Shown: in pieces, positions 18,639-35,062 of the stretch
Layout of the letters: the number at the start of each line of letters is the position of its first letter
Numbering within the stretch: position 1 is the stretch's first letter
Source: Escherichia phage vB_VIPECOOM01
DNA: 64,000 nt
Strand: one strand, 5' to 3'
Sequence record: OQ721909
Program-made: the position numbers and the translations under genes
Notes under the pieces: model-generated
Databases searched by the model: none
Seen by the model: only the letters and a program-made list of their open reading frames with translations
Told to the model about the DNA's origin: nothing

Positions 18639-18650
18639 TATTTATAAATA
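18639..18650. promoter_or_regulatory. overlapping divergent late promoters (TATTTATAAATA) for genes 26 and 51
   Basis: Plus TATAAATA 18643-18650 (gene 51); its complement TATTTATA 18639-18646 serves minus-strand gene 26. Confidence 0.6.
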
Positions 18651-18667
18651 GAATAAAAGGAGCATCT

Positions 18668-19417
18668 ATGGCAAACATTATTCGTTGTAAATTACCAGAT
18701 GGTGTTCATCGTTTTAAACCATTTACGGTAGAAGATTATCGAGATTTTTTGTTAGTTCGAAACGATATAGAACATCGGTCACCACAAGAACAAAAAGAAA
18801 TAATTGCTGATTTAATTGCTGATTATTTTGGAGACTATCCGAAGACTTGGCAACCATTTATATTTTTGCAGGTATTTGTAGGGTCAATAGGTAAAACTAA
18901 AGTACCGGTCACATTTGTATGTCCAAAATGTAAAAAAGAAAAGACAGTTCCATTTGAAATATATCAAAAAGAATTAAAGGAACCTGTTTTTGATGTAGCT
19001 AATGTTAAAATTAAATTAAAGTTTCCTTCTGAGTTTTATGAAAATAAAGCAAAGATGATTACTGAAAATATTCATTCTGTTCAAGTAGATGAAACATGGT
19101 ATGATTGGAAGGAAATTAGCGAATCAAGTCAAATAGAACTTGTTGACGCCATCGAGATAGAAACATTAGAAAAAATTCTCGATGCAATGAATCCTATTAA
19201 TTTAACATTGCACATGTCGTGTTGTAATAAGTATGTAAAAAAATACACTGATATAGTAGATGTGTTTAAGCTATTAGTTAACCCAGATGAGATATTTACT
19301 TTTTATCAAATTAATCACACACTTGTAAAAAGTAATTATAGCTTAAATTCAATAATGAAAATGATTCCTGCCGAGCGCGGATTCGTATTAAAACTGATTG
19401 AGAAGGATAAACAATAA
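18668..19417 (+). CDS. 51: baseplate hub assembly catalyst gp51
   Basis: 249 aa; divergent from gene 26 with shared late-promoter region. Confidence 0.88.
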
Positions 19418-20592
19418 TGAGTATGTTGCAACGCCCTGGATATCCAAATCTCAGCGTTAAATTATTTGATAGCTACGACGCTTGGAGTAATAATAGATTT
19501 GTTGAATTAGCTGCTACTATTACCACATTAACTATGCGGGATTCTCTTTATGGCCGAAATGAAGGAATGCTGCAGTTTTATGATTCTAAAAATATCCATA
19601 CAAAAATGGATGGAAATGAAATAATTCAGATTTCTGTAGCTAATGCAAACGATATTAATAATGTTAAAACAAGAATTTATGGATGTAAGCATTTTTCCGT
19701 GTCAGTAGATTCAAAGGGTGATAACATCATTGCTATTGAATTGGGAACTATTCATTCTATAGAAAATCTTAAATTTGGCAGACCGTTTTTCCCTGATGCA
19801 GGTGAATCTATAAAGGAAATGCTTGGCGTCATTTATCAAGATCGCACATTATTAACTCCAGCGATAAATGCTATAAATGCTTATGTTCCTGATATTCCAT
19901 GGACTAGCACATTTGAAAACTATTTGTCGTATGTCAGAGAAGTTGCTCTAGCTGTAGGAAGTGACAAATTTGTATTTGTATGGCAAGACATCATGGGAGT
20001 TAACATGATGGACTATGATATGATGATAAATCAAGAACCATATCCAATGATTGTCGGTGAGCCATCTTTAATAGGTCAATTCATCCAAGAATTAAAATAT
20101 CCATTAGCATATGATTTCGTTTGGTTGACTAAATCGAATCCTCACAAACGTGACCCAATGAAAAACGCTACTATCTATGCGCATTCGTTTTTGGATTCTT
20201 CATTGCCAATGATTACTACAGGAAAGGGAGAAAACTCTATTGTAGTGTCAAGGTCAGGTGCTTATTCTGAAATGACTTATAGGAATGGATATGAAGAAGC
20301 TATTCGTCTTCAAACTATGGCGCAATACGATGGCTATGCTAAATGTTCTACTGTCGGTAATTTTAACTTAACCCCTGGCGTTAAAATTATTTTTAATGAT
20401 AGTAAAAACCAATTTAAAACAGAATTTTACGTTGATGAAGTCATCCATGAATTATCCAATAATAATTCAGTAACTCATCTATATATGTTCACTAATGCAA
20501 CGAAACTGGAAACAATAGACCCAGTTAAGGTTAAAAATGAATTTAAATCTGATACTACCACTGAAGAAAATAGTTCTTCCAATAAGCAATAA
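19417..20592 (+). CDS. 27: baseplate hub protein gp27
   Basis: 391 aa as T4 gp27; TAATG coupling. Confidence 0.93.
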
Positions 20593-21070
20593 AGAAGTTT
20601 CTATTCCTAAAATGGGTCTTAAACATTATAACATTTTAAAAGATGTTAAAGGTCCTGATGAAAATTTAAAACTTCTTATTGATTCTATTTGTCCAAATTT
20701 ATCACCGGCAGAAGTTGATTTCGTTTCTATTCATTTATTGGAATTTAATGGAAAGATTAAATCTCGTAAAGAAATAGATGGTTATACTTATGACATTAAT
20801 GATGTTTATGTATGTCAAAGATTGGAATTTCAATACCAAGGAAATACATTTTATTTTAGACCGCCTGGAAAATTTGAACAATTTTTAACTGTGAGCGATA
20901 TGTTATCCAAATGCTTGCTTAAGGTCAATGATGAAGTTAAAGAAATTAATTTTCTTGAGATGCCAGCATTCGTTTTAAAATGGGCAAATGATATTTTTAC
21001 AACTTTAGCAATTCCTGGCCCTAATGGTCCAATAACCGGAATTGGCAATATTATTGGATTATTTGAATGA
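20537..21070 (+). CDS. 28: baseplate hub distal protein gp28
   Basis: 177 aa; overlaps gene 27 3' end. Confidence 0.85.
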
Positions 21071-22839
21071 AAAAGCCACAAGAAATGCAAACGATGCGTA
21101 GAAAAGTTATTTCAGATAATAAACCAACACAGGAAGCGGCTAAATCCGCTTCCAACACTTTATCTGGACTTAACGATATATCTACGAAATTGGATGATGC
21201 TCAAGCTGCTTCTGAATTAATTGCTCAAACTGTCGAAGAAAAATCGAATGAAATAATTGGAGCAATTGACAACGTAGAAAACGCAGTGAGTGATACTACT
21301 GCCGGTTCTGAGTTAATTGCTGAAACTGTTGAAATTGGCAACAATATTAATAAAGAAATCGGTGAATCGCTCGGGAGTAAATTAGATAAATTAACGAGTT
21401 TATTAGAGCAAAAAATTCAGACAGCCGGAATTCAACAAACAGGAACTAGTTTAGCTACGGTTGAAAGCGCTATTCCTGTTAAAGTTGTTGAGGACGATAC
21501 AGCTGAATCTGTGGGTCCTTTATTACCGGCTCCTGAAGCAGTTAATAATGATCCTGACGCTGATTTTTTCCCTACCCCTCAGCCAGTTGAACCCAAACAA
21601 GAATCACCAGAAGAAAAACAGAAAAAAGAAGCATTTAACTTAAAATTATCTCAAGCTTTAGATAAATTAACAAAGACGGTTGATTTTGGATTTAAGAAAT
21701 CCATTTCAATTACTGATAAAATATCAAGCATGTTATTTAAGTATACCGTCAGTGCTGCTATTGAAGCTGCTAAAATGACTGCAATGATATTGGCTGTTGT
21801 TGTCGGAATAGACTTGTTGATGGTTCATTTCAAATATTGGTCAGATAAATTTTCACAGGCTTGGGATTTGTTTAGTACAGACTTTACTAAATTCTCTAGC
21901 GAAACCGGAACATGGGGTCCTTTATTACAGAGCATCTTTAGTTCTATTGATGAAATTAAAAAATTCTGGGAAGAGGGAGATTGGGGCGGTTTGACGGTAG
22001 CTATTGTAGAAGGGCTTGGAAAGGTTCTTTATAATTTAGGAGAACTTATTCAGCTTGGAATGGCTAAATTATCTGCGGCAATTCTTCGAGTTATTCCTGG
22101 TATGAAGGATACTGCTGATGAAGTAGAAGGAAGAGCACTAGAAAATTTCCAAAATTCTACTGGAGCATCTCTCAATAAAGAAGACCAGGAAAAAGTTGCA
22201 AATTATCAAGATAAACGAATGAACGGAGACCTTGGTCCGATAGCAAAAGGATTAGATAAAATTGCGAACTGGAAAACTCGTGCATCTAACTGGATTCGTG
22301 GCGTTGATAATAAAGAAGCACTAACTACTGACGAAGAACGTGCAGCAGAAGAAGAAAAATTAAAGCAACTTTCACCAGAAGAAAGAAAAAATGCTTTAAT
22401 GAAGGCTAATGAAGCCCGTGCCGCGATGATTCGTTTTGAAAAATATGCTGATTCGGCTGATATGAGTAAAGACTCAACAGTTAAATCAGTTGAAGCTGCC
22501 TATGAAGACCTTAAAAAACGGATGGATGACCCAGATTTAAATAATTCACCGGCAGTTAAAAAAGAACTTGCTGCTAGATTTTCTAAAATTGATGCTACAT
22601 ATCAAGAGCTCAAGAAAAATCAGCCTAATGCCAAACCTGAAACTTCTGCTAAATCGCCAGAAGCAAAACAAGTCCAGGTAATAGAAAAGAACAAAGCACA
22701 GCAAGCTCCTGTTCAACAAGCATCTCCTTCGATCAATAATACTAATAATGTTATTAAGAAAAATACTGTCGTTCATAATATGACACCCGTAACGAGCACG
22801 ACTGCTCCTGGTGTATTTGATGCGACTGGAGTTAATTAA
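21067..22839 (+). CDS. 29: baseplate hub / tail length determinator gp29
   Basis: 590 aa; ATGA overlap with gene 28. Confidence 0.9.
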   Translation: MKKPQEMQTMRRKVISDNKPTQEAAKSASNTLSGLNDISTKLDDAQAASELIAQTVEEKSNEIIGAIDNVENAVSDTTAGSELIAETVEIGNNINKEIGESLGSKLDKLTSLLEQKIQTAGIQQTGTSLATVESAIPVKVVEDDTAESVGPLLPAPEAVNNDPDADFFPTPQPVEPKQESPEEKQKKEAFNLKLSQALDKLTKTVDFGFKKSISITDKISSMLFKYTVSAAIEAAKMTAMILAVVVGIDLLMVHFKYWSDKFSQAWDLFSTDFTKFSSETGTWGPLLQSIFSSIDEIKKFWEEGDWGGLTVAIVEGLGKVLYNLGELIQLGMAKLSAAILRVIPGMKDTADEVEGRALENFQNSTGASLNKEDQEKVANYQDKRMNGDLGPIAKGLDKIANWKTRASNWIRGVDNKEALTTDEERAAEEEKLKQLSPEERKNALMKANEARAAMIRFEKYADSADMSKDSTVKSVEAAYEDLKKRMDDPDLNNSPAVKKELAARFSKIDATYQELKKNQPNAKPETSAKSPEAKQVQVIEKNKAQQAPVQQASPSINNTNNVIKKNTVVHNMTPVTSTTAPGVFDATGVN

Positions 22840-22847
22840 GGAATAAT

Positions 22848-23942
22848 ATGGCAATTGTTAAAGAAATAACTGCTGATTTAATTAAAAAGTCCGGTGAGAA
22901 AATTTCAGCCGGACAGAGTACTAAATCAGAAGTAGCAACTAAAACATACACTGCCCAGTTTCCAACTGGGCGTGCTAGTGGTAATGACACTACAGGGGAC
23001 TTCCAGGTAACAGATCTATATAAGAATGGATTATTATTTACTGCATACAATATGTCATCTAGGGATTCTGGAAGTCTTAGATCGATGAGATCTAACTACT
23101 CTTCTTCATCTTCGAGTATTTTACGTACAGCCAGAAACACTATCAGTAATACAGTATCAAAACTGTCAAATGGATTAATATCAGATAATAATTCAGGAAC
23201 AATAAGTAAAGCACCTGTTGCAAATATTCTTTTACCAAGATCTAAATCCGATGTTGATACATCATCACATAGATTTAATGATGTTCAAGAAAGTCTTATC
23301 AGTAGAGGCGGAGGTACTGCTACTGGTGTGTTAAGTAATATTGCTTCAACTGCAGTATTTGGGGCACTGGAAAGTATAACGCAAGGTATAATGGCTGATA
23401 ATAATGAACAGATTTATACGACAGCCAGAAGTATGTATGGCGGTGCTGAGAATAGAACTAAAGTGTTTACATGGGATTTGACGCCACGTTCAACAGAAGA
23501 TTTGATGGCTATTATTAATATCTATCAATATTTTAACTATTTTTCTTATGGTGAAACGGGCAAATCTCAATATGCTGCTGAAATAAAGGGGTATTTAGAT
23601 GATTGGTATCGTTCTACATTAATTGAACCTTTATCTCCGGAAGACGCAGCTAAAAATAAAACACTATTTGAGAAAATGACATCGAGTTTAACTAACGTTC
23701 TAGTAGTTTCAAACCCGACAATTTGGATGGTGAAAAACTTTGGTGCAACATCTAAGTTTGATGGAAAAACGGAAATATTTGGCCCATGCCAAATACAGAG
23801 CATCAGATTTGATAAAACACCTAATGGTAACTTTAACGGATTAGCTATTGCTCCAAACCTCCCTAGTACATTTACTCTTGAGATTACTATGAGAGAAATT
23901 ATCACGTTAAACCGTGCTTCTTTATATGCGGGGACTTTTTAA
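22848..23942 (+). CDS. 48: baseplate-tail tube junction protein gp48
   Basis: 364 aa as T4 gp48. Confidence 0.9.
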   Translation: MAIVKEITADLIKKSGEKISAGQSTKSEVATKTYTAQFPTGRASGNDTTGDFQVTDLYKNGLLFTAYNMSSRDSGSLRSMRSNYSSSSSSILRTARNTISNTVSKLSNGLISDNNSGTISKAPVANILLPRSKSDVDTSSHRFNDVQESLISRGGGTATGVLSNIASTAVFGALESITQGIMADNNEQIYTTARSMYGGAENRTKVFTWDLTPRSTEDLMAIINIYQYFNYFSYGETGKSQYAAEIKGYLDDWYRSTLIEPLSPEDAAKNKTLFEKMTSSLTNVLVVSNPTIWMVKNFGATSKFDGKTEIFGPCQIQSIRFDKTPNGNFNGLAIAPNLPSTFTLEITMREIITLNRASLYAGTF

Positions 23943-24907
23943 TGTATTCTTTAGAGGAATTTAATAATCAAGCAATAAACGCAGATTTCCAACGTAATAA
24001 TATGTTTAGCTGCGTTTTTGCGACAACTCCATCAACTAAAAGCTCTTCGTTGATAAGTTCAATTAGCAACTTTTCTTATAATAACTTGGGTCTAAATTCA
24101 GATTGGTTAGGATTGACTCAAGGCGATATTAATCAGGGAATTACCACGCTAATTACCGCTGGCACACAAAAACTGATAAGAAAATCAGGGGTTAGTAAAT
24201 ATCTTATTGGTGCCATGAGTCAACGTACAGTTCAAAGTTTATTGGGCTCATTTACAGTTGGTACATATTTAATCGACTTCTTTAATATGGCATATAACTC
24301 ATCTGGATTGATGATATATTCCGTAAAAATGCCAGAGAATAGATTATCCTATGAAACTGACTGGAACTATAATTCTCCTAATATTCGTATAACTGGGAGA
24401 GAATTAGACCCTTTGGTTATTTCATTTAGGATGGATTCAGAAGCTTGTAACTATCGTGCAATGCAAGACTGGGTTAACGCTGTTCAAGACCCAGTAACTG
24501 GACTGCGTGCTTTGCCGCAAGATGTCGAGGCAGATATTCAGGTTAATCTTCATGCTCGTAATGGATTACCTCATACTGCTGTGATGTTCACCGGATGCAT
24601 TCCAGTGTCAGTGAGTGCTCCTGAGTTATCATATGATGGAGATAACCAAATAACTACATTTGATGTTACTTTTGCGTATAGAGTCATGCAGGCTGGGTCG
24701 GTTGATAGACAAGCTGCGCTTGAGTGGCTTGAATCTGCTGCTATAAATGGCATCCAAAGCGTTCTCGGAAATAGCGGAGGCGTTACTGGATTATCTAATT
24801 CGCTTTCACGACTTAGTAGATTAGGAGGAACTGCGGGAAGCATTTCAAACATTAGTACTATGACGGGAATTGTCAATTCGCAAAGTAAAATATTAGGAGC
24901 AATATAA
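23942..24907 (+). CDS. 54: tail tube initiator gp54
   Basis: 321 aa; TAATG coupling; GAAA hairpin terminator downstream. Confidence 0.9.
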   Translation: MYSLEEFNNQAINADFQRNNMFSCVFATTPSTKSSSLISSISNFSYNNLGLNSDWLGLTQGDINQGITTLITAGTQKLIRKSGVSKYLIGAMSQRTVQSLLGSFTVGTYLIDFFNMAYNSSGLMIYSVKMPENRLSYETDWNYNSPNIRITGRELDPLVISFRMDSEACNYRAMQDWVNAVQDPVTGLRALPQDVEADIQVNLHARNGLPHTAVMFTGCIPVSVSAPELSYDGDNQITTFDVTFAYRVMQAGSVDRQAALEWLESAAINGIQSVLGNSGGVTGLSNSLSRLSRLGGTAGSISNISTMTGIVNSQSKILGAI

Positions 24908-24911
24908 CAAT

Positions 24912-24929
24912 GGGGACCGAAAGGTCCCC
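24912..24929 (+). terminator. hairpin terminator after gene 54
   Basis: ggggacc-gaaa-ggtcccc then 'atattttt'. Confidence 0.75.
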
Positions 24930-24935
24930 ATATTT

Positions 24936-25226
24936 TTATTTGCGGAATGAAATAAAAGCAGCAACTGAAGCAACTAAACTGTCTTCAATATAAACTTCAA
25001 TTTTTACCGGAGCTTCTGATTCAAATTTACCTGTTACTACACCTTGGAAAATGCTTTCAGTCTGTTCTGGCTTTGAAAAATTTTCAGAAGGAAAAATTCC
25101 GAACTTTTTATCTGTTCCAAAAATTTTGATAAATTCATCATAAACTGCTTCATTAAAAGCATTATCAGCAGGAATAACGCCTTCAACTACAAGTTCTTGA
25201 CCTAAAAAGCGCAAAGAAGATTTCAT
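24936..25226 (-). CDS. hypothetical protein (alt.-3-like)
   Basis: 96 aa ORF immediately downstream of conserved early-promoter element. Confidence 0.55.
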   Translation of the reverse strand: MKSSLRFLGQELVVEGVIPADNAFNEAVYDEFIKIFGTDKKFGIFPSENFSKPEQTESIFQGVVTGKFESEAPVKIEVYIEDSLVASVAAFISFRK

Positions 25227-25234
25227 TTTGTGTT

Positions 25235-25287
25235 CCTCATGTTATGTAAGTAAAATTACTATAACACAACACGAGGGACTTGTAAAC
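25235..25287 (-). promoter_or_regulatory. conserved 53-bp early-promoter element, copy A (upstream of alt.-3-like ORF)
   Basis: Minus-sense 'GTTTACaagtccctcgtgttgtgttatagta...'; 49/53 identical to copy B. Confidence 0.55.
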
Positions 25288-27344
25288 TACATTTTGAACT
25301 TTTTAGACATTCCGTTGATGTTAACCAAAGAAGCCAAGATTTGAGAAACTTCGTTTTCCTCTTCTTTTGATTCTTCTACAAGGAATTGATTAAATCCAGC
25401 CATTGGACGAACTTCACCAGTTTCCATCAGATGGTCGCCATCATATACCGATTCTTCTAATTGTTCAGAAGGAGGAACGATTGTGCCTTCGACTAGATAC
25501 TTATTATAAGCAGTTTCTTTCATCATGTACGTACTCACTTTATTAATCTTCAGTAGAATTCCACGTGGTAGAATAATTTCAGCTTCTGATGGAAATCCTG
25601 ATAAATGACCTGGAACGATAACTTTGATTCGCTCAGCTCCTTTAATTACCATACCAACGCTAGTTTCAGCATCTTCATTCGCATAAGCAGAGCGACTGCC
25701 CATATGCATCAAATCTTCTGCGTCAACTGAACCTTCTCCTTCACCAGAAAATACTGCACCGGAATCATCTAGAGCCATATAGTTTTTACCATACTCACCG
25801 AAGATATTTGGTTTAAGCGATGTGGATACGAAGTTCTTGAAATAAAACATTTTATTTTCAATATTATGGCGTAAAGTTTTGAAAGTAACTTCTTGTCCAC
25901 GGTAAAGTGTAGTTCCTGGAGGAAGAACTGAACCTTTAGCAAAGGCAGAATCCATTGTCTCGATGTGTTTAATAGCTCGTTCCATATATTCTTCACGGGT
26001 AGAATCTGGTTTACCTAAAAGGAACGAGTTCATTTCAACATATGAATCTGCACAATAATCTTCAATTACATCAGATTCAGCTTGAGTCAGTCCTTTTGGA
26101 GTTACTTCGGTGCTTGCGTATTCATATGCCTGGGCGGCAGATTCATTAATCAATTTATAAATGCCATTCATGACAAATTGAATAATAGCTACCTTTTCAT
26201 CTGGCGTGGCTTTAGAACCTTTAACTAAATCATTAACAATTTTCTTAATAACATCAAAGCTGTTAGAAATATTAATATCAGAAAGATCACTTAAAATTTT
26301 ATCAGTTTTATAATCAAAAAATTCTTTATTCTTTAAATATTCTTGAGAACCTTGATATGTTATATCGCTCTGTAATTTAATAGATGGATCACGTAAACGT
26401 GCATGAGCCAATGCAATATGATTTCGGAAGCTTTCTAGTTCATAATCGTTAGATTTAAAACGAGAAGCGCTTCTCATACCACCTATAGCTCCTTTGCTGA
26501 AGTTTGAACCAATTTGAATAACGCCAGAGTTCATTGATCCTTCTGCTTTATATACCGGAACTTTAGATTCAAACTCTTGATATTTCTTAGCAGCGAAGCT
26601 ATCGCCCTGAAGTGAAGCATCAACAGTAGAATATTGAGCTTGTGCTGCTAATCGACGACTAATTTTAGTTTTCTGAATAACAGCTTGATCCGTGCGCTTA
26701 TCATTTTCTAAAGCAATAGAAGCAGCAACAGCAACAGCTTTAGGAACAGCATTACCCGTTTTAACGTCTACATAAACATCACCAACCTTTGATTCAACTT
26801 TTGTGAATAACTCAGTTGAAATAGGAGGTACACCTGGAATGTCTTCTAAATTGGCATTTTTACGGTAAACCATAATATATGCATACTTTTTATCGTAATC
26901 CCAGATTTCCTTTAAAAGAACATATCGACCTGCTCCTTTAGTACGTACTAAACGGTCGGCAATAACTTGCATTTGACGAGCTGCGCCGTTTGTTTTACTC
27001 TTTAGTACGCGGAATAAGCATGCATCAATTTTATACTGTTTCATTGTTTGAAGAGCAGTATCAAAAACCGCATTAATGACACCAATTGGGTTTCCACCCA
27101 AGTTTTTAAGTTTAACTAATGATAGTTTTTCATTGACACCTATCATTACGATATGCATCATTTTATCGCCTGGCTTAACGTTTTTATTTGTATCACCACC
27201 AGAGGTGTATGTACAAAATCTAAATCCAGGAAGCACACTTTCTTCACCGGCTTGAATAGCAAAAATTTGAGGTATTTTATGCTTAGGATTTAAGTTAACA
27301 ACCGGCGCCGAAGCGCCGTCAAATAATTCTGTAATAAGTTCCAT
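25287..27344 (-). CDS. Alt-like ADP-ribosyltransferase paralog
   Basis: 685 aa; N-terminal about 230 aa near-identical to adjacent Alt; ART motifs 'LYRGQ' (Arg), 'FVSTSL' (S-T-S), C-terminal 'YDGDHLMETGE'. Confidence 0.85.
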   Translation of the reverse strand: MELITELFDGASAPVVNLNPKHKIPQIFAIQAGEESVLPGFRFCTYTSGGDTNKNVKPGDKMMHIVMIGVNEKLSLVKLKNLGGNPIGVINAVFDTALQTMKQYKIDACLFRVLKSKTNGAARQMQVIADRLVRTKGAGRYVLLKEIWDYDKKYAYIMVYRKNANLEDIPGVPPISTELFTKVESKVGDVYVDVKTGNAVPKAVAVAASIALENDKRTDQAVIQKTKISRRLAAQAQYSTVDASLQGDSFAAKKYQEFESKVPVYKAEGSMNSGVIQIGSNFSKGAIGGMRSASRFKSNDYELESFRNHIALAHARLRDPSIKLQSDITYQGSQEYLKNKEFFDYKTDKILSDLSDINISNSFDVIKKIVNDLVKGSKATPDEKVAIIQFVMNGIYKLINESAAQAYEYASTEVTPKGLTQAESDVIEDYCADSYVEMNSFLLGKPDSTREEYMERAIKHIETMDSAFAKGSVLPPGTTLYRGQEVTFKTLRHNIENKMFYFKNFVSTSLKPNIFGEYGKNYMALDDSGAVFSGEGEGSVDAEDLMHMGSRSAYANEDAETSVGMVIKGAERIKVIVPGHLSGFPSEAEIILPRGILLKINKVSTYMMKETAYNKYLVEGTIVPPSEQLEESVYDGDHLMETGEVRPMAGFNQFLVEESKEEENEVSQILASLVNINGMSKKFKM

Positions 27345-27347
27345 GAT

Positions 27348-29444
27348 TTATCCTTGAACGAACTTGTAAGGCATGTTTGTAATATCTATGCAAGACGCAA
27401 TAATTCCAAGAGATGATTCTGCTTTCTGTTTAACATTTGATGAAACAAATGATGCAAAGTCAACTCTGTCTTCTATTTCAATATCACCTGTCATTGCAAC
27501 CAATTCACCAGTTTCCATTAAATGGTCTCCATCATAGATTACCGATTCGGTGAGTTCTTCCGTAGTCATAACTTCAGCTTGAATGAGTTTTGTATTATTA
27601 GATGTTGTTCCGTCATTATTGGAAGCATCAGTTATTTTATTAACTTTGACCATCAATCCGCGTGGTAAAATAACTTCAGCTTCAGTTGCTATTCCGAGAC
27701 TTCCTGGATATACAACATTAACTTTATGAGCTCCATCAATTGCCCATCCTATTTGAACTTTAACGTATTCAGGATTTTCTTTATACGCTCTTATTTCGTT
27801 TGGATTAATAGTTATTCCTTCTTCATTTTTATCAACTGTTAATTCATTGCGAGCTTCTGGTTCTAAAAGACCAATACCAGCATGCGTAATTCCAAAACGT
27901 CCAAAAATGATAGGAGTTAAAGAAGTAGATACAAAATTTCTGAAATAGAACACTTTATTTTTAACTAGTGCTTCGTATATAGGAGCAGTCATACTTTGAG
28001 CACGATAAACTGTAATGCCTTCTGGTATACGGTCACCATTTTCAAAGGCTGAATCTAAATTATTTATCGCAGATTCAATTTCTTTTTCACTCATTACATC
28101 ATATCGTTCTGGATTATAGCGTCCTAAAAGAAGATTATTGATGTCAGTATATCCTGATCCACAATACTCTCTAATGCCGCGCTTTTGCGATGGAGTATAT
28201 TTAGAACCATCACGGGCAATAGTAATATCAATCATTGGACCTGCACCAATTCCAGAAAAGCTATAAATCATTCGTTTGAGGAATTTAGTTTTTGCTGCGT
28301 TCCAGGAATTTTTAGTTATTTCTTCCCAGACTTCATCTGGCTGTCCTTTACGGGTTTTATTATGTTTATCAAGCCAAGTATCTTTATATTCTTCAAAGAA
28401 TTTATTAATAGCTGCTGCATACTTCTCTAAACATTTTATTGAAGTAGTTGGTTCATTTTTGATCGCGTTAAAAATTACATCTTTAATTTTTTCAGAAACT
28501 TCATTAACCTCACTTTTTGAAAAGAATTTATAGTCATAGTGAAGTTCATCTGCAGTCCCTTCGGCAATAATTTTTGCTGCCTTAGTTTTAGAAGCTAATG
28601 AATTAATTCCAAGTTTCATTTCTTCCGCTTCGGGAATTAAAGGAGCTGTAGCAGGTTTATTGAAATTAGCTGCAGTAGATTCATACTTCTGGAATAATTC
28701 ACTTTCAAATCTAGAAGATTCCAATGACTGACTTTGTGCAATTGCTCTACGGGAAATTTTAACTTTAACTATTACAGCTTGGTCAGAACGTTTATCGTTT
28801 TCTTGCGCAATAGATGCTGCAATTGCCTCATTTTTAGTTACTTGAGCTCCAGTATCTTTATTGATATAAACATCGCCGACCTTCGATTCAACTTTAGTAA
28901 AGAGCTCGGTACTAATTTCTGGAACTCCTGGAATGTCTTCTAGTGATACATTTTTGCGATGTATAAGAATATATGCATACTTTTTATCGTAATCCCAGAG
29001 TTCCTTAAGAAGGACGTATCTGCCACCTGAACGACTACGGATAAGTCTATCAGCAATAACTTGAATTTGTCGAGCTTGACCAGCAGTTTTAGACTTAAGA
29101 ATACGGAGCATACAGGCATCAATTTTATACTGACGCATCGTCTGCATTGCAACAGTAAAAACTGAATTGATATAATTAATTGGGCTTGGACCGAGACCTT
29201 TTAATTTAGCAATTGAACCTTTAGCAGTTAATGTAAAAGGAACAATATGCATCATTTTATCGCCCATTTTTAAATCGCGATTAGTATCACCTCCAGATGT
29301 ATAGGTACATAAACGAAAGCCTGGTTGTTCAATTGCGTCATCAACATGAACTGAAAAAATTTGCGGTATTTTCTTCTTTGGATTTAAGTTTGTAATCGGA
29401 AGAGTAGTATCTTCGTCAAATAATTCTGTAATGAGTTCCATCAT
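27348..29444 (-). CDS. alt: Alt, packaged mono-ADP-ribosyltransferase
   Basis: 698 aa; ART motifs 'VYRAQ', 'FVSTSL'; late promoter TATAAATA 15 nt upstream; adjacent to gene 30 as in T4. Confidence 0.9.
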   Translation of the reverse strand: MMELITELFDEDTTLPITNLNPKKKIPQIFSVHVDDAIEQPGFRLCTYTSGGDTNRDLKMGDKMMHIVPFTLTAKGSIAKLKGLGPSPINYINSVFTVAMQTMRQYKIDACMLRILKSKTAGQARQIQVIADRLIRSRSGGRYVLLKELWDYDKKYAYILIHRKNVSLEDIPGVPEISTELFTKVESKVGDVYINKDTGAQVTKNEAIAASIAQENDKRSDQAVIVKVKISRRAIAQSQSLESSRFESELFQKYESTAANFNKPATAPLIPEAEEMKLGINSLASKTKAAKIIAEGTADELHYDYKFFSKSEVNEVSEKIKDVIFNAIKNEPTTSIKCLEKYAAAINKFFEEYKDTWLDKHNKTRKGQPDEVWEEITKNSWNAAKTKFLKRMIYSFSGIGAGPMIDITIARDGSKYTPSQKRGIREYCGSGYTDINNLLLGRYNPERYDVMSEKEIESAINNLDSAFENGDRIPEGITVYRAQSMTAPIYEALVKNKVFYFRNFVSTSLTPIIFGRFGITHAGIGLLEPEARNELTVDKNEEGITINPNEIRAYKENPEYVKVQIGWAIDGAHKVNVVYPGSLGIATEAEVILPRGLMVKVNKITDASNNDGTTSNNTKLIQAEVMTTEELTESVIYDGDHLMETGELVAMTGDIEIEDRVDFASFVSSNVKQKAESSLGIIASCIDITNMPYKFVQG

Positions 29445-29464
29445 ATCCTCTCTAGTGTTTATTC

Positions 29465-29472
29465 TATTTATA
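29465..29472 (-). promoter_or_regulatory. late promoter TATAAATA (alt)
   Basis: Plus 'tatttata' = minus TATAAATA about 20 nt upstream of alt ATG. Confidence 0.6.
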
Positions 29473-29477
29473 AAATT

Positions 29478-29495
29478 AAAGGCCCGAAGGCCTTT
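29478..29495 (-). terminator. hairpin between alt.1-like ORF and alt late promoter
   Basis: aaaggcc-cgaa-ggccttt. Confidence 0.5.
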
Positions 29496-29682
29496 AATAA
29501 TCTAGTGGTAAGAGAGTACGGTATATTTCAAACTTCGGACCTTTTTCATAGGCATCAAATGTTTCTGTAAATTTATTATAAGCATATGCATCTACAAATT
29601 CAAGAACGATTTGTGATACAGAAGTAGAAACATCTCCACCTTCTTTTTGAGCCACGACAATTGTTTCTAAGTAAGCTTTCAT
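29494..29682 (-). CDS. hypothetical protein (alt.1-like)
   Basis: 62 aa, ATGA-type overlap with gene 30 stop. Confidence 0.5.
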   Translation of the reverse strand: MKAYLETIVVAQKEGGDVSTSVSQIVLEFVDAYAYNKFTETFDAYEKGPKFEIYRTLLPLDY

Positions 29683-31139
29683 AGACCAGTTACCTCATGA
29701 AAATCACCAAATACATCCTCGAATGTATTAGCTTTAGTTTTATCTTCACGTAAACGAATCGCAATTGGAAGAAATAATTTAACGTAATCAGTGCGGCCAT
29801 CAGATTTTAACCAACCATTGCATTCGCACTCTAGAATTTTTCCAATATAATAATTTTGGTTTTCCATAATGCGAGTACGGTCAAGTTCATGTGATTTTAC
29901 ACCGGCTTTATCTTTTAAGCCTGAACCTGCATTTACTTTAATTTTTCCACACTCTGATTCAAGAATAAATCCACCTGCTTTAGTAGGGTCTTTACGGTGA
30001 GGATAAATTCCTACAATTTTTAAATCAACATCAATTACTTCTTTAAATTTATAAAGATTTTTTGAACGAGCATTTTCCCACAATCCATCGGTATTTTTGA
30101 GAATAATACCTTCAAGACCTTGGTCAATATATTTTTTATAAATTACCTTAGCTTCATCTAGGTTATTTACTACCTGGTTTTCAATTAAAATTACTTTATC
30201 ATATCCTGATGTCATTTGTTCTAGTTTAGAAAAACGTACATCATATTTTAAACGAAACGTCGGAAGACCGTATATTTCTACCAACGGAACATAATCCCAG
30301 ACCTGAAACTTCATGCATTTGGCTTCTTTTTCTGAAATAGTTCCCTTTAAAGATTTATTGGCGATTCCATTAGAAGCAGTACGAGATTCAGCTACTTCGG
30401 CAAACTCTTTAGCTTTACTGATTTCAGGAGCGTCAAAAAGAAAATCTAGGCCTTCTGGTTCCTTTTCAACTTGCTCATGGTATACCAATTCGCCATCAAT
30501 TAACACACCTTCTGGATGAATCTGGCGGGCTTCAGCGGTCATTTTGATTAACTCTTCCTTAAGAAGATCTAATCCTAGATATTCATTACCAGCTCGTGAT
30601 AAAAGACGAACATCATCTAATTCATCACCTCGAACTTCAGCAAAACACCGAGCTCCATCTGCTTTTAACTGTGCAAAGGCTGGAAATTTGATATTCTTAC
30701 TAATGCCTTTTTCATCATAAGAACTTGCCAGCATTTGAGGTTGTTCAGGAATTAAACCTGGCCAAACTTTGTTTGCAATAGATACTGAAGCACCGCATTC
30801 AAGGTCTCGCATCATAACTCGACGCAAAACTTCAACATCATCCTTTTTACCATCGGTGATATATCCAGTTAATTCCTCAATTGCTGCATTGCCAGTTAAT
30901 TTCCGAGTAGCTAACGTGAATTCAATGAAGTCAAGCATATCGGTAATAGTCAACATTCCAAAACTCTGGGTAGCAATACCAGGTTTAGGCCATTTCTTGA
31001 TATAATACTGTAACCCACGAGAATAAGTCAGACGATATACTCGTTTAAGCAATTCATTATCTTTATTCTTTTCAAGAATTGCTTGCTTCTGCTTAGTTGA
31101 TCCAATAGATGCTATTTCATTCAGAATTTTAAGAATCAT
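29679..31139 (-). CDS. 30: ATP-dependent DNA ligase gp30
   Basis: 486 aa; motif I 'KADGAR'; matches recalled T4 ligase. Confidence 0.97.
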   Translation of the reverse strand: MILKILNEIASIGSTKQKQAILEKNKDNELLKRVYRLTYSRGLQYYIKKWPKPGIATQSFGMLTITDMLDFIEFTLATRKLTGNAAIEELTGYITDGKKDDVEVLRRVMMRDLECGASVSIANKVWPGLIPEQPQMLASSYDEKGISKNIKFPAFAQLKADGARCFAEVRGDELDDVRLLSRAGNEYLGLDLLKEELIKMTAEARQIHPEGVLIDGELVYHEQVEKEPEGLDFLFDAPEISKAKEFAEVAESRTASNGIANKSLKGTISEKEAKCMKFQVWDYVPLVEIYGLPTFRLKYDVRFSKLEQMTSGYDKVILIENQVVNNLDEAKVIYKKYIDQGLEGIILKNTDGLWENARSKNLYKFKEVIDVDLKIVGIYPHRKDPTKAGGFILESECGKIKVNAGSGLKDKAGVKSHELDRTRIMENQNYYIGKILECECNGWLKSDGRTDYVKLFLPIAIRLREDKTKANTFEDVFGDFHEVTGL

Positions 31140-31405
31140 TGTTCATCCTTCAAAGTTTGATTTACATCTCTATTATAAATCAATTCATCATTAAGCTCAG
31201 GCAAAGACTTATGATATGTAGTTCTAACTTTATTTCCTTGCATCCAGTGCTTGACGTAAATGAAACCTTGCTCTACACATTTTTTAAAAATTCGTTCGTC
31301 TTTTTGAGCTCGGAATTCTGGATTGCATCTAAAAAATTGATTTACGTGACCGTAATCACGTGTAGTATTACCTTCATTTTCATAAATAGTATGAACAACA
31401 AACAT
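31136..31405 (-). CDS. hypothetical protein (30.1-like)
   Basis: 89 aa, coupled upstream of gene 30. Confidence 0.55.
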   Translation of the reverse strand: MFVVHTIYENEGNTTRDYGHVNQFFRCNPEFRAQKDERIFKKCVEQGFIYVKHWMQGNKVRTTYHKSLPELNDELIYNRDVNQTLKDEQ

Positions 31406-32244
31406 TAGAATGCTCCTTGAAAAATATTATCACCACTAGTAGGTCTATTATACAAATACTCTATGCCACCAGGTTTAATATAGTTCCATGTCTGAAACGG
31501 ATGTGTCTGATATGGATGATATAGATGATTATAAGGATTTAATCCAGGCGTTCTCCAGGTAGTGTTCCAAGGAAAAGAATCATTTTTAACCATCTTCTCA
31601 ATTAAATCTTTTATAGCTTTTTCACTATCAAAACTTTCTTTATTTTCCTTCGGCGAAAAAAGCTTATTTTCTACATCATTCCATGTATAAACTCGCTGTG
31701 CAGTTTTTGGAATATTGTCACGCTCTCCTCGAGCCATCCAATAAACTGGAACATTTAATATTTCACTCGCATGATCGCAGTGATGAGCGAGATCGTCAAT
31801 ATAACAAATTACGTTATATTTCTCTTTTGCCTTTTTGAACAGCTCTTCTTTTGAAGAATCATGACCACACATCATTACTTCTGAGAAGGCACCAGGAAAA
31901 AGAGCATTCAAATTAAATTGACGATTCAACAGAGCGTCAATAGAATCACCCAATGCTGTAACAGCTACAAAATTATAATCTTCTTTTAATTTGTTAATTA
32001 CACACAGGGCATCTTTATACGGAGACAAGTAACGAATAAAATCTGAACGATTGTATTTTTCAATTAACTTGACGCCAAGTTCTTCGTCACAATTAAAGAG
32101 TTTACCTGGAGAAATAAATTTCTCATCTTGGATCATTTTTAAAATATGTTCTAATGGAAGATTATATTTCTGAGCAAAATAAGGAAGGCCTGATTGCCAG
32201 CTTAAACATACTCCATCAATATCAGTTAAAATAGTAGGCTTCAT
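31405..32244 (-). CDS. HAD-superfamily-like hydrolase (30.2-like)
   Basis: 279 aa; N-terminal 'ILTDIDGV' resembles HAD motif I DxDG(T/V). Confidence 0.65.
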   Translation of the reverse strand: MKPTILTDIDGVCLSWQSGLPYFAQKYNLPLEHILKMIQDEKFISPGKLFNCDEELGVKLIEKYNRSDFIRYLSPYKDALCVINKLKEDYNFVAVTALGDSIDALLNRQFNLNALFPGAFSEVMMCGHDSSKEELFKKAKEKYNVICYIDDLAHHCDHASEILNVPVYWMARGERDNIPKTAQRVYTWNDVENKLFSPKENKESFDSEKAIKDLIEKMVKNDSFPWNTTWRTPGLNPYNHLYHPYQTHPFQTWNYIKPGGIEYLYNRPTSGDNIFQGAF

Positions 32245-32699
32245 AGAGAGTCTCTTAATAGGTTTAACACATCAATAAATTCAGCTTCGGTTAGTATTGT
32301 ATCATCTTTTGTTAGACCACTAGCCATGCTGTGCTTCAAAACTTTTCCTTTCGAAGCTTGTAATGCATCACGAAAGCCCCTGTTTTGGATCGCTGCTTCA
32401 AAATATGCATTTGTGTATAATTCTTTCCACGCTGGAGAGTATCTTGAAAATGGAACTCCAAGCCAGAACAACGTGCCACGGTCCTGAGCTCTAGCATAAG
32501 ACCTTCCAGCTTGTTGCGCATCCAATCCGGACATCCCAAATATACGTCTTTGCTGTTCAACATTTTTCACCTTACATCCTTGGAGGAATCCTTCGAGACC
32601 TCCAAATTGGATACCATCCATAACGAAAGGCCATTGGGCGAAATTACTTAATGCACATGATGGCCATCTAAAATTGCTTCTTATCTCTAGCTCAGACAT
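32241..32699 (-). CDS. NADAR/YbiA-like (DUF1768) putative N-glycosidase (30.3-like)
   Basis: ORF-track start 32705 is TTG; ATG 32699 gives 152 aa; motif 'ALSNFAQWPFVMDGIQFGGLEGFLQGCK' vs YbiA 'FSNFAAWP..VDG...SEHYFQAQK'. Confidence 0.6.
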   Translation of the reverse strand: MSELEIRSNFRWPSCALSNFAQWPFVMDGIQFGGLEGFLQGCKVKNVEQQRRIFGMSGLDAQQAGRSYARAQDRGTLFWLGVPFSRYSPAWKELYTNAYFEAAIQNRGFRDALQASKGKVLKHSMASGLTKDDTILTEAEFIDVLNLLRDSL

Positions 32700-32898
32700 T
32701 TTCAATACTTATAATTTCAACATCAGCCCAATGACCATAGCAAGGAAGACGAAATTCAACTGGCCAGTTAGGGTCCTTTTCTAATATAATAGACTTAACT
32801 TGTGGTTCTTCATGTTCATCGGTATACGGACCTTTATACGTTACTTTATATGTGACCTTAATGTACTGAATTCCAAAAATCTTATTAATTATATTCAT
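32692..32898 (-). CDS. hypothetical protein
   Basis: 68 aa; overlaps flanking ORFs by 4-8 nt (coupled array). Confidence 0.45.
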   Translation of the reverse strand: MNIINKIFGIQYIKVTYKVTYKGPYTDEHEEPQVKSIILEKDPNWPVEFRLPCYGHWADVEIISIENV

Positions 32899-33092
32899 AC
32901 TAATTCCTTTAATCCATAGATAGGAGATAATTCATCACCCATACGAAGGTCTTCATTTCCATCTACCCAGGAAACAATATAAGCCTCTTTTATTTGAATA
33001 CCACTCCATTTAAATGGAGGTAGAACCTTAGAAATTAATCCAGGTATACCGACTCCCTTTAATTCAACAGTTTGACCCAAAAAGAATTTCAT
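32895..33092 (-). CDS. hypothetical protein
   Basis: 65 aa; ATGA coupling. Confidence 0.45.
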   Translation of the reverse strand: MKFFLGQTVELKGVGIPGLISKVLPPFKWSGIQIKEAYIVSWVDGNEDLRMGDELSPIYGLKELV

Positions 33093-33379
33093 TAGAACCT
33101 CATCTGAAAACCATGCGATTTAACATTACCGCCGTCAATATCAGAAATGTTAATTTCACGCGCAATTGAAGGGTCAATGTCAATTTCACGATTGAGTTTA
33201 GCGATAGTTAGAGTATCGCGCCCATTTACAGTACGGAACTCTAAAGGGCAGACTACATTAACGTAGTTTTTAATCGATTCACTGGTAGGCTGCAAATGAG
33301 CAGGAAGGTCTTTAGGCGCCTTAGAGAAAACCACTTCACAGAAATTTTTGCGGGTATCAAAATAAGTAGTCATAAACAT
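33092..33379 (-). CDS. hypothetical protein
   Basis: 95 aa ORF with ATG. Confidence 0.5.
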   Translation of the reverse strand: MFMTTYFDTRKNFCEVVFSKAPKDLPAHLQPTSESIKNYVNVVCPLEFRTVNGRDTLTIAKLNREIDIDPSIAREINISDIDGGNVKSHGFQMRF

Positions 33380-33419
33380 AGTATTTTCCTCAGTAAGGGG
33401 CCGAAGCCCCTATTTTATT

Positions 33420-33785
33420 TTAAATATCAAATTCGTTAAGAACTACATCAAAAATCGCTTCAAGATGCTCAGGTTTAGCTCTGTTACTCAGAATATGACG
33501 AATCCAAGTTTTAACCAGAAGCTTACGATTGACGCCATTCCAGCAAGGATGAGTCCCTAAATCACGTTGACGGAAATCATCATCTAATGCGATTTTAAAA
33601 GAAGAACCTTCTTTCGTGATTGAAACTGTGATGCCATTTTCAAATCGCATATAAACGTAGTTAGGAGTCATATACTGTTCAATTTCGCATACTGATCCAT
33701 TTTGATGTTTCCAAAGGCAAATAGTATCATTAGAACCTGCAATACCGTTAGAAACATATTTACGTTCAAAGTTGATGTAGTTCAT
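33420..33785 (-). CDS. hypothetical protein
   Basis: ORF-track start 33797 is TTG; ATG 33785 preceded by GGAG; 121 aa; early promoter upstream. Confidence 0.5.
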   Translation of the reverse strand: MNYINFERKYVSNGIAGSNDTICLWKHQNGSVCEIEQYMTPNYVYMRFENGITVSITKEGSSFKIALDDDFRQRDLGTHPCWNGVNRKLLVKTWIRHILSNRAKPEHLEAIFDVVLNEFDI

Positions 33786-33821
33786 TTTATTCTCCAAGAT
33801 GTTTAATTGTGGTACAGGTAT

Positions 33822-33850
33822 ATAATATCATATCCTGTACCAAAGTAAAC
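33822..33850 (-). promoter_or_regulatory. early promoter (GTTTAC, 17 nt, TATTAT) with embedded inverted repeat
   Basis: Minus-sense 'GTTTACtttggtacaggatatgaTATTAT'; IR ggtacagg/cctgtacc at 33811-33841. Confidence 0.5.
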
Positions 33851-33852
33851 AA

Positions 33853-34185
33853 TTATTTTACTACTTTCCAGTGCTGCATGTCAAGTTTACCAACTTTTTT
33901 CATCTTCTCAATTAAGCGTTCTGCACGTTGGCGAGCTGTAACATAATACCATTCGCCTAATTCATTTTGTTCAATTTTTCCAACGATTACTGTATTCAAT
34001 TCATAAATCCAACCAGTAAAGAAATTATGAACTTGAATTGTAAAGGTGAAATCTGTTCCCATACCTTCTGTTGTTTCTACTTCAATAATATCACCTTCAA
34101 CTGCCATTAAGAACCACATAGTTTCATCATATTTACCATTGAAGCATTTAGTTTTAACTGTAGCGTTCAGATTAATCGTTTTCAT
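33853..34185 (-). CDS. hypothetical protein
   Basis: 110 aa; early promoter upstream (34214-34242). Confidence 0.5.
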   Translation of the reverse strand: MKTINLNATVKTKCFNGKYDETMWFLMAVEGDIIEVETTEGMGTDFTFTIQVHNFFTGWIYELNTVIVGKIEQNELGEWYYVTARQRAERLIEKMKKVGKLDMQHWKVVK

Positions 34186-34213
34186 TTTATTCTCCTTTGC
34201 TTGTGTAAGATAA

Positions 34214-34242
34214 TACTATCACAAAGGAACTATACTGTAAAC
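34214..34242 (-). promoter_or_regulatory. early promoter (GTTTAC -35)
   Basis: Minus-sense 'GTTTACagtatagttcctttgtgatagtattat'. Confidence 0.45.
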
Positions 34243-34272
34243 AACTTTGTGCAATCTTTGGAAAATAAAAAA

Positions 34273-34290
34273 GGACTCCCGAAGGAGTCC
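34273..34290 (-). terminator. hairpin terminator downstream of small basic ORF
   Basis: ggactcc-cgaa-ggagtcc followed on minus strand by T-run. Confidence 0.6.
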
Positions 34291-34295
34291 TCAAC

Positions 34296-34514
34296 TTATG
34301 CTTTCTGCTTACCAAAACGAGAAGCATCATCTCGAAGAACCGCACGTGCTCGGCGCATGATCTTCTCAACAGTTTGATTGATACGAGAGTTCGACCCACG
34401 CTTGTAACCAGCGCGTTTAGAATCACCAACTTTCTTTTCAACTGCTTTCTTTGCTTTAGCTTGTTTTGCCATTATAAATTCTCTTTTAAATGAAAATGCA
34501 GGACTTATTGGCAT
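34296..34514 (-). CDS. small highly basic protein (start uncertain; may begin at internal ATG 34472, 'MAKQAKAKKAVEKK...')
   Basis: 72 aa Lys/Arg-rich ORF; hairpin terminator immediately downstream. Confidence 0.4.
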   Translation of the reverse strand: MPISPAFSFKREFIMAKQAKAKKAVEKKVGDSKRAGYKRGSNSRINQTVEKIMRRARAVLRDDASRFGKQKA

Positions 34515-34666
34515 TGCCTGCGCAAGCCCTCAAGGGGAACATAGGTTTTGAGTATTTACCGACAGGATAACCATAAACCTCGTCAACATTCAAGAGGTAC
34601 ACCGTAAAACAAAGTTCGACGGCTCCTCGATTTTAGCTCACACTAAGGCAGTGAATCTCCAATAAA

Positions 34667-34915
34667 TTACTTCAGTGTTACCACAAAGTGACGAACTGCT
34701 TTTCGTGCAGCAGAAGCCAGAGGCTTAGCATACTTAAGTTCATCTTTTTCCTGGAGCTCAGCAGCTAATGCAGTTTGAGCAGGATTCAGATGTTTGAAAT
34801 AACGCAGGATTTCAAGGGCTTCGGCTTCAACATCAATAGATGCGCCATAGTTTTCGTGACCATTATTCCATGCGTTTCGTTGCAGTTCAAGAGCGTGTTG
34901 TAATTGTTTAATCAT
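34667..34915 (-). CDS. rIII: rIII lysis-inhibition accessory protein
   Basis: 82 aa as T4 rIII; syntenic next to gene 31. Confidence 0.85.
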   Translation of the reverse strand: MIKQLQHALELQRNAWNNGHENYGASIDVEAEALEILRYFKHLNPAQTALAAELQEKDELKYAKPLASAARKAVRHFVVTLK

Positions 34916-35054
34916 TTAAAAATTCTCGTTAGAGATTAAAACTCGGTAGTCACGTTCTTCTGAATTTCATCTTCTTTCGACAGATCTCTCAGTTGTAGAC
35001 TACCACGTAGAATTGTTCGGTTAACTTATTATTCCGACACCCAATTCATATTAT

Positions 35055-35062
35055 TATTTATA
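35055..35062 (-). promoter_or_regulatory. candidate late promoter (rIII) with long leader
   Basis: Minus-sense TATAAATA immediately downstream of gene 31 stop. Confidence 0.35.

Follow-up and report, generated by a model that had tools for sequence, protein, structure and literature searches.

The window analyzed here, a 64,000-nt stretch of Escherichia phage vB_VIPECOOM01 (sequence record OQ721909), contains two adjacent minus-strand genes, altA and altB. With a probability of about 80%, we consider both to encode functional enzymes of the T4 Alt family, arginine-specific mono-ADP-ribosyltransferases that are packaged in the head and injected. The assignment is carried by homology, catalytic residues, prohead-protease cleavage motifs, the arrangement of promoter and operon, the signature of purifying selection, and the deletion that removed the second gene from T4. 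We further infer that AltB is packaged, processed, injected and active, and that its targets differ from those of AltA. The pair was noticed in a sequence-only reading of the window as two neighbouring minus-strand open reading frames (ORFs) of 698 and 685 aa, and the ORF list indeed contains both (27348-29444 and 25287-27344). The altA gene begins with two adjacent in-frame ATG codons, the first of which (29444) gives a protein of 698 aa and the second (29441), the choice made in GenBank and for T4, a protein of 697 aa. The two genes and the parts of their products are as follows (ART, ADP-ribosyltransferase; gp21, the T4 prohead protease).

27348..29441, minus strand: altA, 697 aa, positional ortholog of T4 alt.
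29424..29441, minus strand: altA N-terminal propeptide MELITE, with predicted gp21 cleavage after E6; identical to T4 Alt.
28728..29423, minus strand: altA N-terminal alpha/beta module, aa 7-238; 237/238 identical to T4 Alt and 68% identical to altB.
28197..28727, minus strand: altA hypervariable all-helical middle, aa 239-415, with predicted helices.
27558..28196, minus strand: altA ART catalytic domain, aa 416-628, with R480, S505 of the Ser-Thr-Ser (STS) motif and E587-A-E589.
28002-28004 (R480), 27927-27929 (S505) and 27675-27683 (E587-A-E589), minus strand: altA catalytic codons.
27351..27545, minus strand: altA predicted C-terminal propeptide, aa 633-697, after LTE-632; includes YDGDHLMETGE.
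25287..27344, minus strand: altB, second Alt paralog, 685 aa.
27327..27344, minus strand: altB N-terminal propeptide MELITE, with predicted gp21 cleavage after E6.
26631..27326, minus strand: altB N-terminal alpha/beta module, aa 7-238; its first ~117 codons are the source of T4 alt.-1/alt.-2.
26085..26630, minus strand: altB all-helical middle, aa 239-420; sequence relation to the altA and T4 Alt middles undetectable.
25464..26084, minus strand: altB ART catalytic domain, aa 421-627, with R482, S507 and E587-A-E589.
25899-25901 (R482), 25824-25826 (S507) and 25578-25586 (E587-A-E589), minus strand: altB catalytic codons.
25290..25451, minus strand: altB predicted C-terminal propeptide, aa 632-685, after LEE-631; includes YDGDHLMETGE.

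Both proteins matched the phrog_802 profile over positions 2-674 of 674 (E 4.8e-273 for altA and 5.7e-255 for altB), and the PF03496 domain (ADPrib_exo_Tox) was found at residues 379-628 of altA (129 bits) and 416-620 of altB (72 bits), with a cut-off of 23.4. The family alignment was built from 56 representatives drawn from a search of 1.84 billion proteins, and its invariant columns are Y430, D465, R482, S507, E587, E589, P593, R594 and G595 in altB numbering. As read from this alignment, the invariant Arg, Ser-Thr-Ser and Glu-x-Glu are the signature of arginine-specific transferases. Loss of the catalytic Arg or Glu, named in the sequence-only reading as an outcome that would speak against the assignment, was not found, R, S and E-x-E being invariant throughout the 56 representatives. 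The Glu-x-Glu motif reads EAEVILPRG in altA and EAEIILPRG in altB and occupies residues 587-589 in both. The E577A mutant of T4 Alt is inactive (PMC11404850); when residues are counted from the upstream ATG, E577 is the second of the two Glu in E-x-E and corresponds to E589 of altA and altB. Because T4 alt, like altA (29439-29444), begins with two adjacent in-frame ATGs, residue numbering is off by one between papers: the residue changed in E577A is E576 in the other numbering, and ITE-6 is counted from the second ATG.

The ART fold of the catalytic domain expected of an Alt-family member was recovered in structure prediction. The AlphaFold2 (AF2) models have a mean predicted local distance difference test score (pLDDT) of 84.4 for altA and 80.7 for altB, and the altB model, a confident one, agrees with the ART fold. 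A phmmer search for a solved Alt structure matched only toxin ART domains with altA and nothing with altB, and NCBIfam has no family for either protein. The N-terminal module of altA (aa 7-238), for which structure comparison gave no convincing structural relative, is proposed to be a head-incorporation or ejection module. On full-length Alt members, a precomputed domain list shows PF26846.1 accompanying PF03496; our local Pfam scan, whose profile set lacks that accession, gave PF03496 alone. Four metagenomic proteins of 221-1142 aa (P0202, P0217, P0220 and P0224) match the Alt N-terminal module alone (approximately residues 10-165), and a Pfam scan of these four found no domains, ART included. 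Judging by these sequences, the module may also be joined to other C-terminal parts.

The sites at which the proteins are probably trimmed could be mapped by comparison with T4. Mass spectrometry of T4 heads has established that gp21 cuts Alt at ITE-6 and LTE-619, removing 6 and 63 residues (PMC5694885), and the processed protein has a mass of 68.2 kDa (PMC5694885; PMC9026906). At the motif level, both cleavage sites are present in both window proteins. Their N-termini, MELITE↓LFD (the arrow marks the cut), are identical to that of T4 Alt, so that the L/I-x-E prohead-protease signal proposed from the sequence coincides with the mapped ITE-6 site. Their C-terminal motifs are EELTE↓SVIYDGD in altA (E632) and EQLEE↓SVYDGD in altB (E631). 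T4 LTE-619 aligns with altA LTE-632 and altB LEE-631, and YDGDHLMETGE starts at most 5 residues later. Both E6 and E631 (altB numbering) are nearly invariant in the 56 family representatives, the consensus being (L/I)-x-E↓VFD for the N-terminal site and L-x-E↓S...YDGD...E(T/S)GE for the C-terminal one. The two-cut rule applied to T4 Alt gives 68.2 kDa, matching the published mass and thus validating the mapping of the cleavage sites; by the same cuts, the predicted mature masses are 70.2 kDa for AltA and 69.2 kDa for AltB.

Three motifs had been listed as shared catalytic motifs of the pair: YR(A/G)Q (R480 in altA, R482 in altB), FVSTSL (S505 and S507) and YDGDHLMETGE (starting at 636 and 634). 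The first two hold. A catalytic role for the third was ruled out, since it lies outside PF03496 (which ends at residue 628 in altA and 620 in altB), on the C-terminal side of the L-x-E cleavage site and inside the C-terminal propeptide. By its aligned position YDGDHLMETGE belongs to this propeptide and not to the mature enzyme, because it directly follows the site aligned with T4 LTE-619, where 63 residues are removed.

That altB was once complete in the ancestry of T4 is indicated by two small T4 genes. In T4, alt is followed by alt.-1 (61 aa) and alt.-2 (67 aa), which the T4 record describes as 'an old duplication of the first part of gene alt'; T4 holds only these small ORFs at this position, as the sequence-only reading had stated. 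They align to the altB N-terminus and not to that of altA, and the families of alt.-1 and alt.-2 (phrog_23015 and phrog_15247) match altB with E 2e-40 and 3e-38 and altA with E 1e-21 and 2e-19. When the aligned altB stretch is begun at the 3 intergenic nt located 5' of its ATG, nt 1-350 of the T4 remnant show 95.2% DNA identity to its first 351 nt, and nt 342-421 show 96.3% identity to its last 80 nt. The intervening deletion of ~1.7 kb lies between the 9-bp imperfect repeats CTAAAGAGT and CTAAAAAGT, with the junction CTAAA(G/A)AGT, and a 1-nt frameshift divides the remnant into alt.-1 and alt.-2. Phages slur03 and Lv5cm have the same deletion junction together with the window-type altA allele, and slur03 has an additional stop codon. 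Since the three remnants share the junction, a single deletion event is indicated; by this comparison T4 alt.-1/alt.-2 is the remnant of a full-length altB after one deletion, later spread by recombination. All four combinations of alleles occur: the remnant accompanies T4-type alt in T4 and window-type altA in slur03 and Lv5cm, and full altB accompanies T4-type alt in Sf21 and window-type altA in this phage and T6. The window altB itself has none of the marks of a pseudogene (internal deletion, frameshift or stops): its 685-aa ORF is uninterrupted and the T4 junction is absent.

Intact altB is widespread and conserved. A tblastn search found the altB middle at at least 90% identity in 400 phage records, including T6, RB32, RB10, RB18, AR1 and PST, and across 400 records, T6, RB32 and AR1 among them, the intact gene shows 94-100% identity; the RB32 counterpart carries the label alt.-2. 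The main altB protein cluster comprises 772 sequences. The ratio of nonsynonymous to synonymous substitution rates (dN/dS) is 0.04-0.06 among altB orthologs and the same for altA. On these measures altB is a maintained gene and not a decaying copy.

The two window proteins aligned end to end in BLASTP (41% identity, E 3e-160), and the identity is distributed unevenly: 68% over residues 1-238, about 20% over residues 238-421 (15-20% when taken over the altA middle, aa 239-415), ~35% in the ART region and ~40% in the tail. Both begin with MELITELFD, and an N-terminus of ~230 aa is shared, as had been noted; the term 'near-identical' used for it is wrong at 68% identity. Third codon positions in the N-terminal 238 aa are just ~50% identical, and the longest near-identical DNA tracts measure 23-31 nt, ruling out recent gene conversion as the origin of the shared N-terminus; concerted evolution further back in time, or joint adaptation to one head, is a better reading. 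The middles, thought from the sequence to be unrelated over a central ~250 aa, are so at the sequence level (~20% identity) over a shorter stretch of ~180 aa. An hhalign comparison of the altA and altB middle profiles gave a probability of 0.2%, and the altB middle matched a single place per record in tblastn, never altA. Each middle is predicted to be all-helical with a similar helix spacing, so that the two may have a common fold; extreme divergence or replacement would both fit this similarity. The proteins also differ beside the active site, where altA has LGIATEAE and altB has SGFPSEAE, and in the insertions of 40-60 aa after STS, which cannot be aligned between them.

By comparison with its T4 ortholog, altA is itself variable. 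It matches T4 Alt at 237/238 positions over residues 1-238, at ~29% in the middle, at ~66% in the ART domain and at ~95-97% in the C-terminal propeptide region. At the DNA level, the identity between altA and T4 alt falls abruptly from 97% to ~47% and returns to ~96% only in the final ~60 codons. As judged from these breakpoints, altA is a mosaic relative to T4 Alt. Across phage records its middle is at least 90% identical in 316, 60-80% identical in 39 and less than 60% identical in 437. The polymorphism of the altA locus covers the central ~400 codons (window 27558-28727), with ~50% DNA identity to T4 alt and sharp breakpoints, and a third, MX01-like altA type exists with a middle region 64-67% identical.

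Modules were compared among Tequatrovirus, two Dhakavirus phages, one Kanagawavirus and one Klebsiella phage. The N-terminal modules of Tequatrovirus AltA and AltB are 68% identical to each other and 41-47% identical to all copies from other genera, which are 65-97% identical among themselves. The other segments follow a different pattern. Window altA is 63-66% identical to Dhakavirus copy 1 in the middle and 84-95% in the ART domain, and altB is 48-49% and 57-58% identical, respectively, to the last Dhakavirus copy. The altA ART domain is 95% identical to that of a Dhakavirus copy whose N-terminal module is 46% identical. Quartet bootstraps of window altA and altB against copies 1 and 2 of Dhakavirus dhaeg grouped the copies within genomes in 1000/1000 replicates for the N-terminal module and in 0/1000 for every other segment. 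In these alignments the N-terminal module groups by phage lineage, and the middle, ART domain and C-terminal propeptide group by gene type. MX01 has three alt copies, dhaeg and most Tequatrovirus have two, and the Kanagawavirus and the Klebsiella phage have a single copy each. The three tandem paralogs of Escherichia phage MX01 (Dhakavirus) are 694, 681 and 707 aa long, and the second has a middle and ART cassette unlike both window types (10-21% and 35-42% identity). The middles of the 56 family representatives fall into 43 groups without a BLAST link at E 1e-5 or better.

This pattern suggests a lineage-fitted delivery module combined with exchangeable effector cassettes, a model of our own that is not stated in the papers searched. 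A bolder proposal, to which we give somewhat less than even odds, is that the Tevenvirinae alt locus behaves like a capsid-delivered array of polymorphic effectors. The N-terminal module would be kept similar among copies sharing a genome, the middle, ART and C-terminal propeptide cassettes would be old, separate types moving among genomes and across genera, and AltB would have a host target of its own, possibly a defence or translation factor and not RNA polymerase. If so, the YDGD..ETGE motif in the C-terminal propeptide would be a second signal for head targeting, tethering or masking of activity, and T4, having deleted altB, would be blind to half of the system.

The locus is organized as in T4. 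On the plus strand genes 29, 48 and 54 follow one another, and then on the minus strand alt.-3, altB, altA, alt.1 and DNA ligase, which is the T4 gene order. The alt genes thus lie between DNA ligase/alt.1 and alt.-3/gene 54, as expected of T4-type alt genes, and a late promoter is present. The 4.8 kb spanning both alt genes is 100% identical to Escherichia phage vB_VIPECOOM03 (OQ721911, Tequatrovirus), where each gene is annotated as 'Alt-like RNA polymerase ADP-ribosyltransferase'. The flanking elements are as follows.

29465..29472, minus strand: T4-type late promoter TATAAATA, ~23 nt 5' of altA.
29478..29495, minus strand: GC-rich terminator-like hairpin AAAGGCCTTCGGGCCTTT, then AATTTTA, located 3' of the alt.1 homolog and 5' of the late promoter.
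24936..25226, minus strand: alt.-3 homolog (DUF5498, 96 aa), directly 3' of altB.
24910..24931, no strand assigned: bidirectional terminator-like hairpin between the convergent alt.-3 homolog and gene 54.

The TATAAATA motif at 29465-29472 is the sole minus-strand T4 late promoter motif in 18639-35062. The AAAGGCCTTCGGGCCTTT hairpin was recognised by direct reading of the sequence, the automatic scan giving no report of it; T4 alt has an identical arrangement of hairpin and late promoter 5' of the gene, both of which altA shares. The altA stop and the altB start are separated by 3 nt, and AAGGA is located 8 nt 5' of the altB ATG. The hairpin at 24910-24931 has a perfect 9-bp GC-rich stem with T-runs on either side, and the alt.-3 homolog is the probable final gene of the late transcription unit. 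The simplest reading of this layout is a single late transcript carrying altA, altB and alt.-3. Sigma-70 promoter matches were no more frequent in the scan than in shuffled sequence, hence uninformative. Among the neighbours, the alt.1 homolog (29494-29682, minus strand, 62 aa) matches Pfam PF24647 'Phage_blade' (E 1e-29) and is called 'siderophore-interacting protein' or 'GnsA/GnsB toxin' in certain GenBank records. C-terminal extensions of T4 Alt.-3 are known to give escape from the CmdTAC defence by blocking CmdA degradation (PMC11618068).

Taken together, a scheme modeled on T4 can be proposed for the pair. Both genes would be transcribed late from the single TATAAATA promoter 5' of altA, and altB translation is probably coupled to that of altA because the gap is 3 nt. 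Each product would consist of four parts, namely an I-T-E propeptide, a lineage-variable alpha/beta module of ~230 aa, a hypervariable helical region, and an R-S-ExE domain resembling C2/C3 toxins followed by a tail, an acidic C-terminal propeptide that would start after L-x-E. By analogy with T4 Alt, both proteins would be placed in the prohead core and trimmed at each end by gp21. The mature enzymes would then be ejected along with the DNA and, within seconds of infection, would draw on the NAD+ of the host to ADP-ribosylate arginine residues in its proteins; T4 Alt is present in ~40 copies in the mature head and is ejected with DNA (PMC9026906). The different middles, insertion loops and ADP-ribosylating turn-turn (ARTT) loops most likely confer different target sets. 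In T4 the second enzyme was lost by the 1.7-kb deletion between 9-bp imperfect repeats together with the frameshift.

Several points weigh against this scheme. Our literature search found no virion proteomics or biochemistry on AltB. T4, slur03 and Lv5cm live without a full altB, and T4 Alt is non-essential (PMC9026906), so any selective benefit would be conditional. The proposed difference in target specificity is read from sequence divergence, and both proteins carry the same Arg-type E-x-E. A rival explanation is that AltB is a redundant second dose, packaged and active on the same targets as AltA including RNA polymerase alpha, and serving to raise the amount of injected enzyme. It would agree with the common Arg-type E-x-E, R and STS motifs, with the operon and both processing motifs common to the two genes, and with the promiscuity of T4 Alt (Depping 2005, as cited in PMC5512222). 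We nevertheless find it unlikely, given that the ART domains are ~35% identical and the middles unrelated, that the loops flanking the active site differ and the post-STS insertions are unalignable, and that both gene types remain distinct in Tequatrovirus and Dhakavirus, whereas copies kept for dosage tend to homogenise or vanish.

Less likely still is that AltB is made late without being virion cargo and acts in the producing cell on host or phage proteins, or has a non-enzymatic role. Detection of AltB in virions was not found in the literature search, and recombinant full-length T4 Alt is reportedly active without processing, so that activity would not require packaging. Such a role would leave unexplained why both gp21 motifs and the entire N-terminal module are kept under strong purifying selection; moreover, in both paralogs this module varies with phage lineage, as a part fitted to the head should, and both genome location and late promoter match those of T4 alt. 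The view that altB is a decaying or catalytically dead paralog heading to the T4 state is very improbable. It can point to the remnants in T4, slur03 and Lv5cm and to a few truncated clusters of 415-624 aa (P0006, P0008 and P0010), but the ORF of 685 aa is unbroken, 772 sequences make up the main cluster, 400 phage records are at least 90% identical, dN/dS is 0.04-0.06 with all catalytic residues invariant, and the AF2 model is confident and ART-like. In addition, the one common deletion junction indicates a single loss rather than recurrent decay. A pair of functional, injected Alt enzymes remains the preferred reading.

The tandem pair is real, ordinary and widespread in T-even phages, and has already been annotated and remarked on; the feature and the outline of its identity as first described from the sequence stand, with one motif misread and one adjective too strong. 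Hundreds of GenBank records annotate the pair as two Alt-like transferases, and the record of Sf21 describes the second as 'distinct from T4 Alt; N-terminus similar to Alt.-1'. Nolan et al. 2006 (PMC1524935) reported alt among the genes with paralogous duplications, T4 alt.-1/alt.-2 and a full-length copy in 44RR being instances. A 2026 paper described, for a Tequatrovirus, a pair of Alt-like paralogs with 43% identity and proposed diverged targets (PMC13600099), and the Alt/VIP2 clade and its head-associated context are covered by comparative reviews (PMC5512222, PMC9503650). The literature search found no experimental study of either window Alt protein, nor of the second paralog. Knowledge of injected phage ADP-ribosyltransferases comes almost entirely from T4, a minority genotype without the second enzyme. 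If the inference holds, two different Alt enzymes are injected by ~400 sequenced relatives, T6 and many candidate therapy phages among them, and the targets of the second could reveal a further step of host takeover or anti-defence. The modular build, with a lineage-specific delivery part, swappable catalytic cassettes and protease sites, is also relevant to the delivery of foreign proteins by T4-type heads.

Among known systems, T4 Alt (gpAlt, NP_049811), a head-packaged NAD+:arginine ADP-ribosyltransferase, is the closest. It shares with altA the locus, promoter, hairpin, ITE-6/LTE motifs and R-S-ExE residues, and differs from it in the middle and ART cassette, with sharp breakpoints. With altB it shares architecture and motifs at ~41% overall identity, the altB middle being unrelated. 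The tandem pairs of T6, RB32, AR1, Sf21, 6phi13/SHFML-11, 44RR, Dhakavirus dhaeg and MX01 are located in the same place and show no substantive difference. ModA and ModB of T4 are small (~200 aa), early-expressed enzymes. Both belong to the R-S-E clade of ARTs and are paralogs of Alt within T4 itself (PMC5512222), Mod being a separate family within this clade (PMC9503650); unlike Alt, they are not injected from the phage head (PMC5512222). The C2/C3-like R-S-ExE toxins (Vis, C3bot, iota Ia, CDTa, VIP2 and Certhrax) have 15-24% sequence identity to the Alt proteins and are delivered by a binary-toxin pore or secretion system, whereas Alt is delivered by the phage head; nothing in these toxins corresponds to the N-terminal module of Alt, its helical middle or the propeptides that the protease removes. 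By analogy, with no membership claimed, the Alt proteins also resemble polymorphic toxins of the Rhs/CDI type and the hypervariable T-even internal-protein (IPI) locus, in that a lineage-conserved delivery module carries highly variable effector cassettes, apparently exchanged through recombination. Compared with these systems, the Alt proteins have neither homology nor an immunity gene, and are delivered by the capsid.

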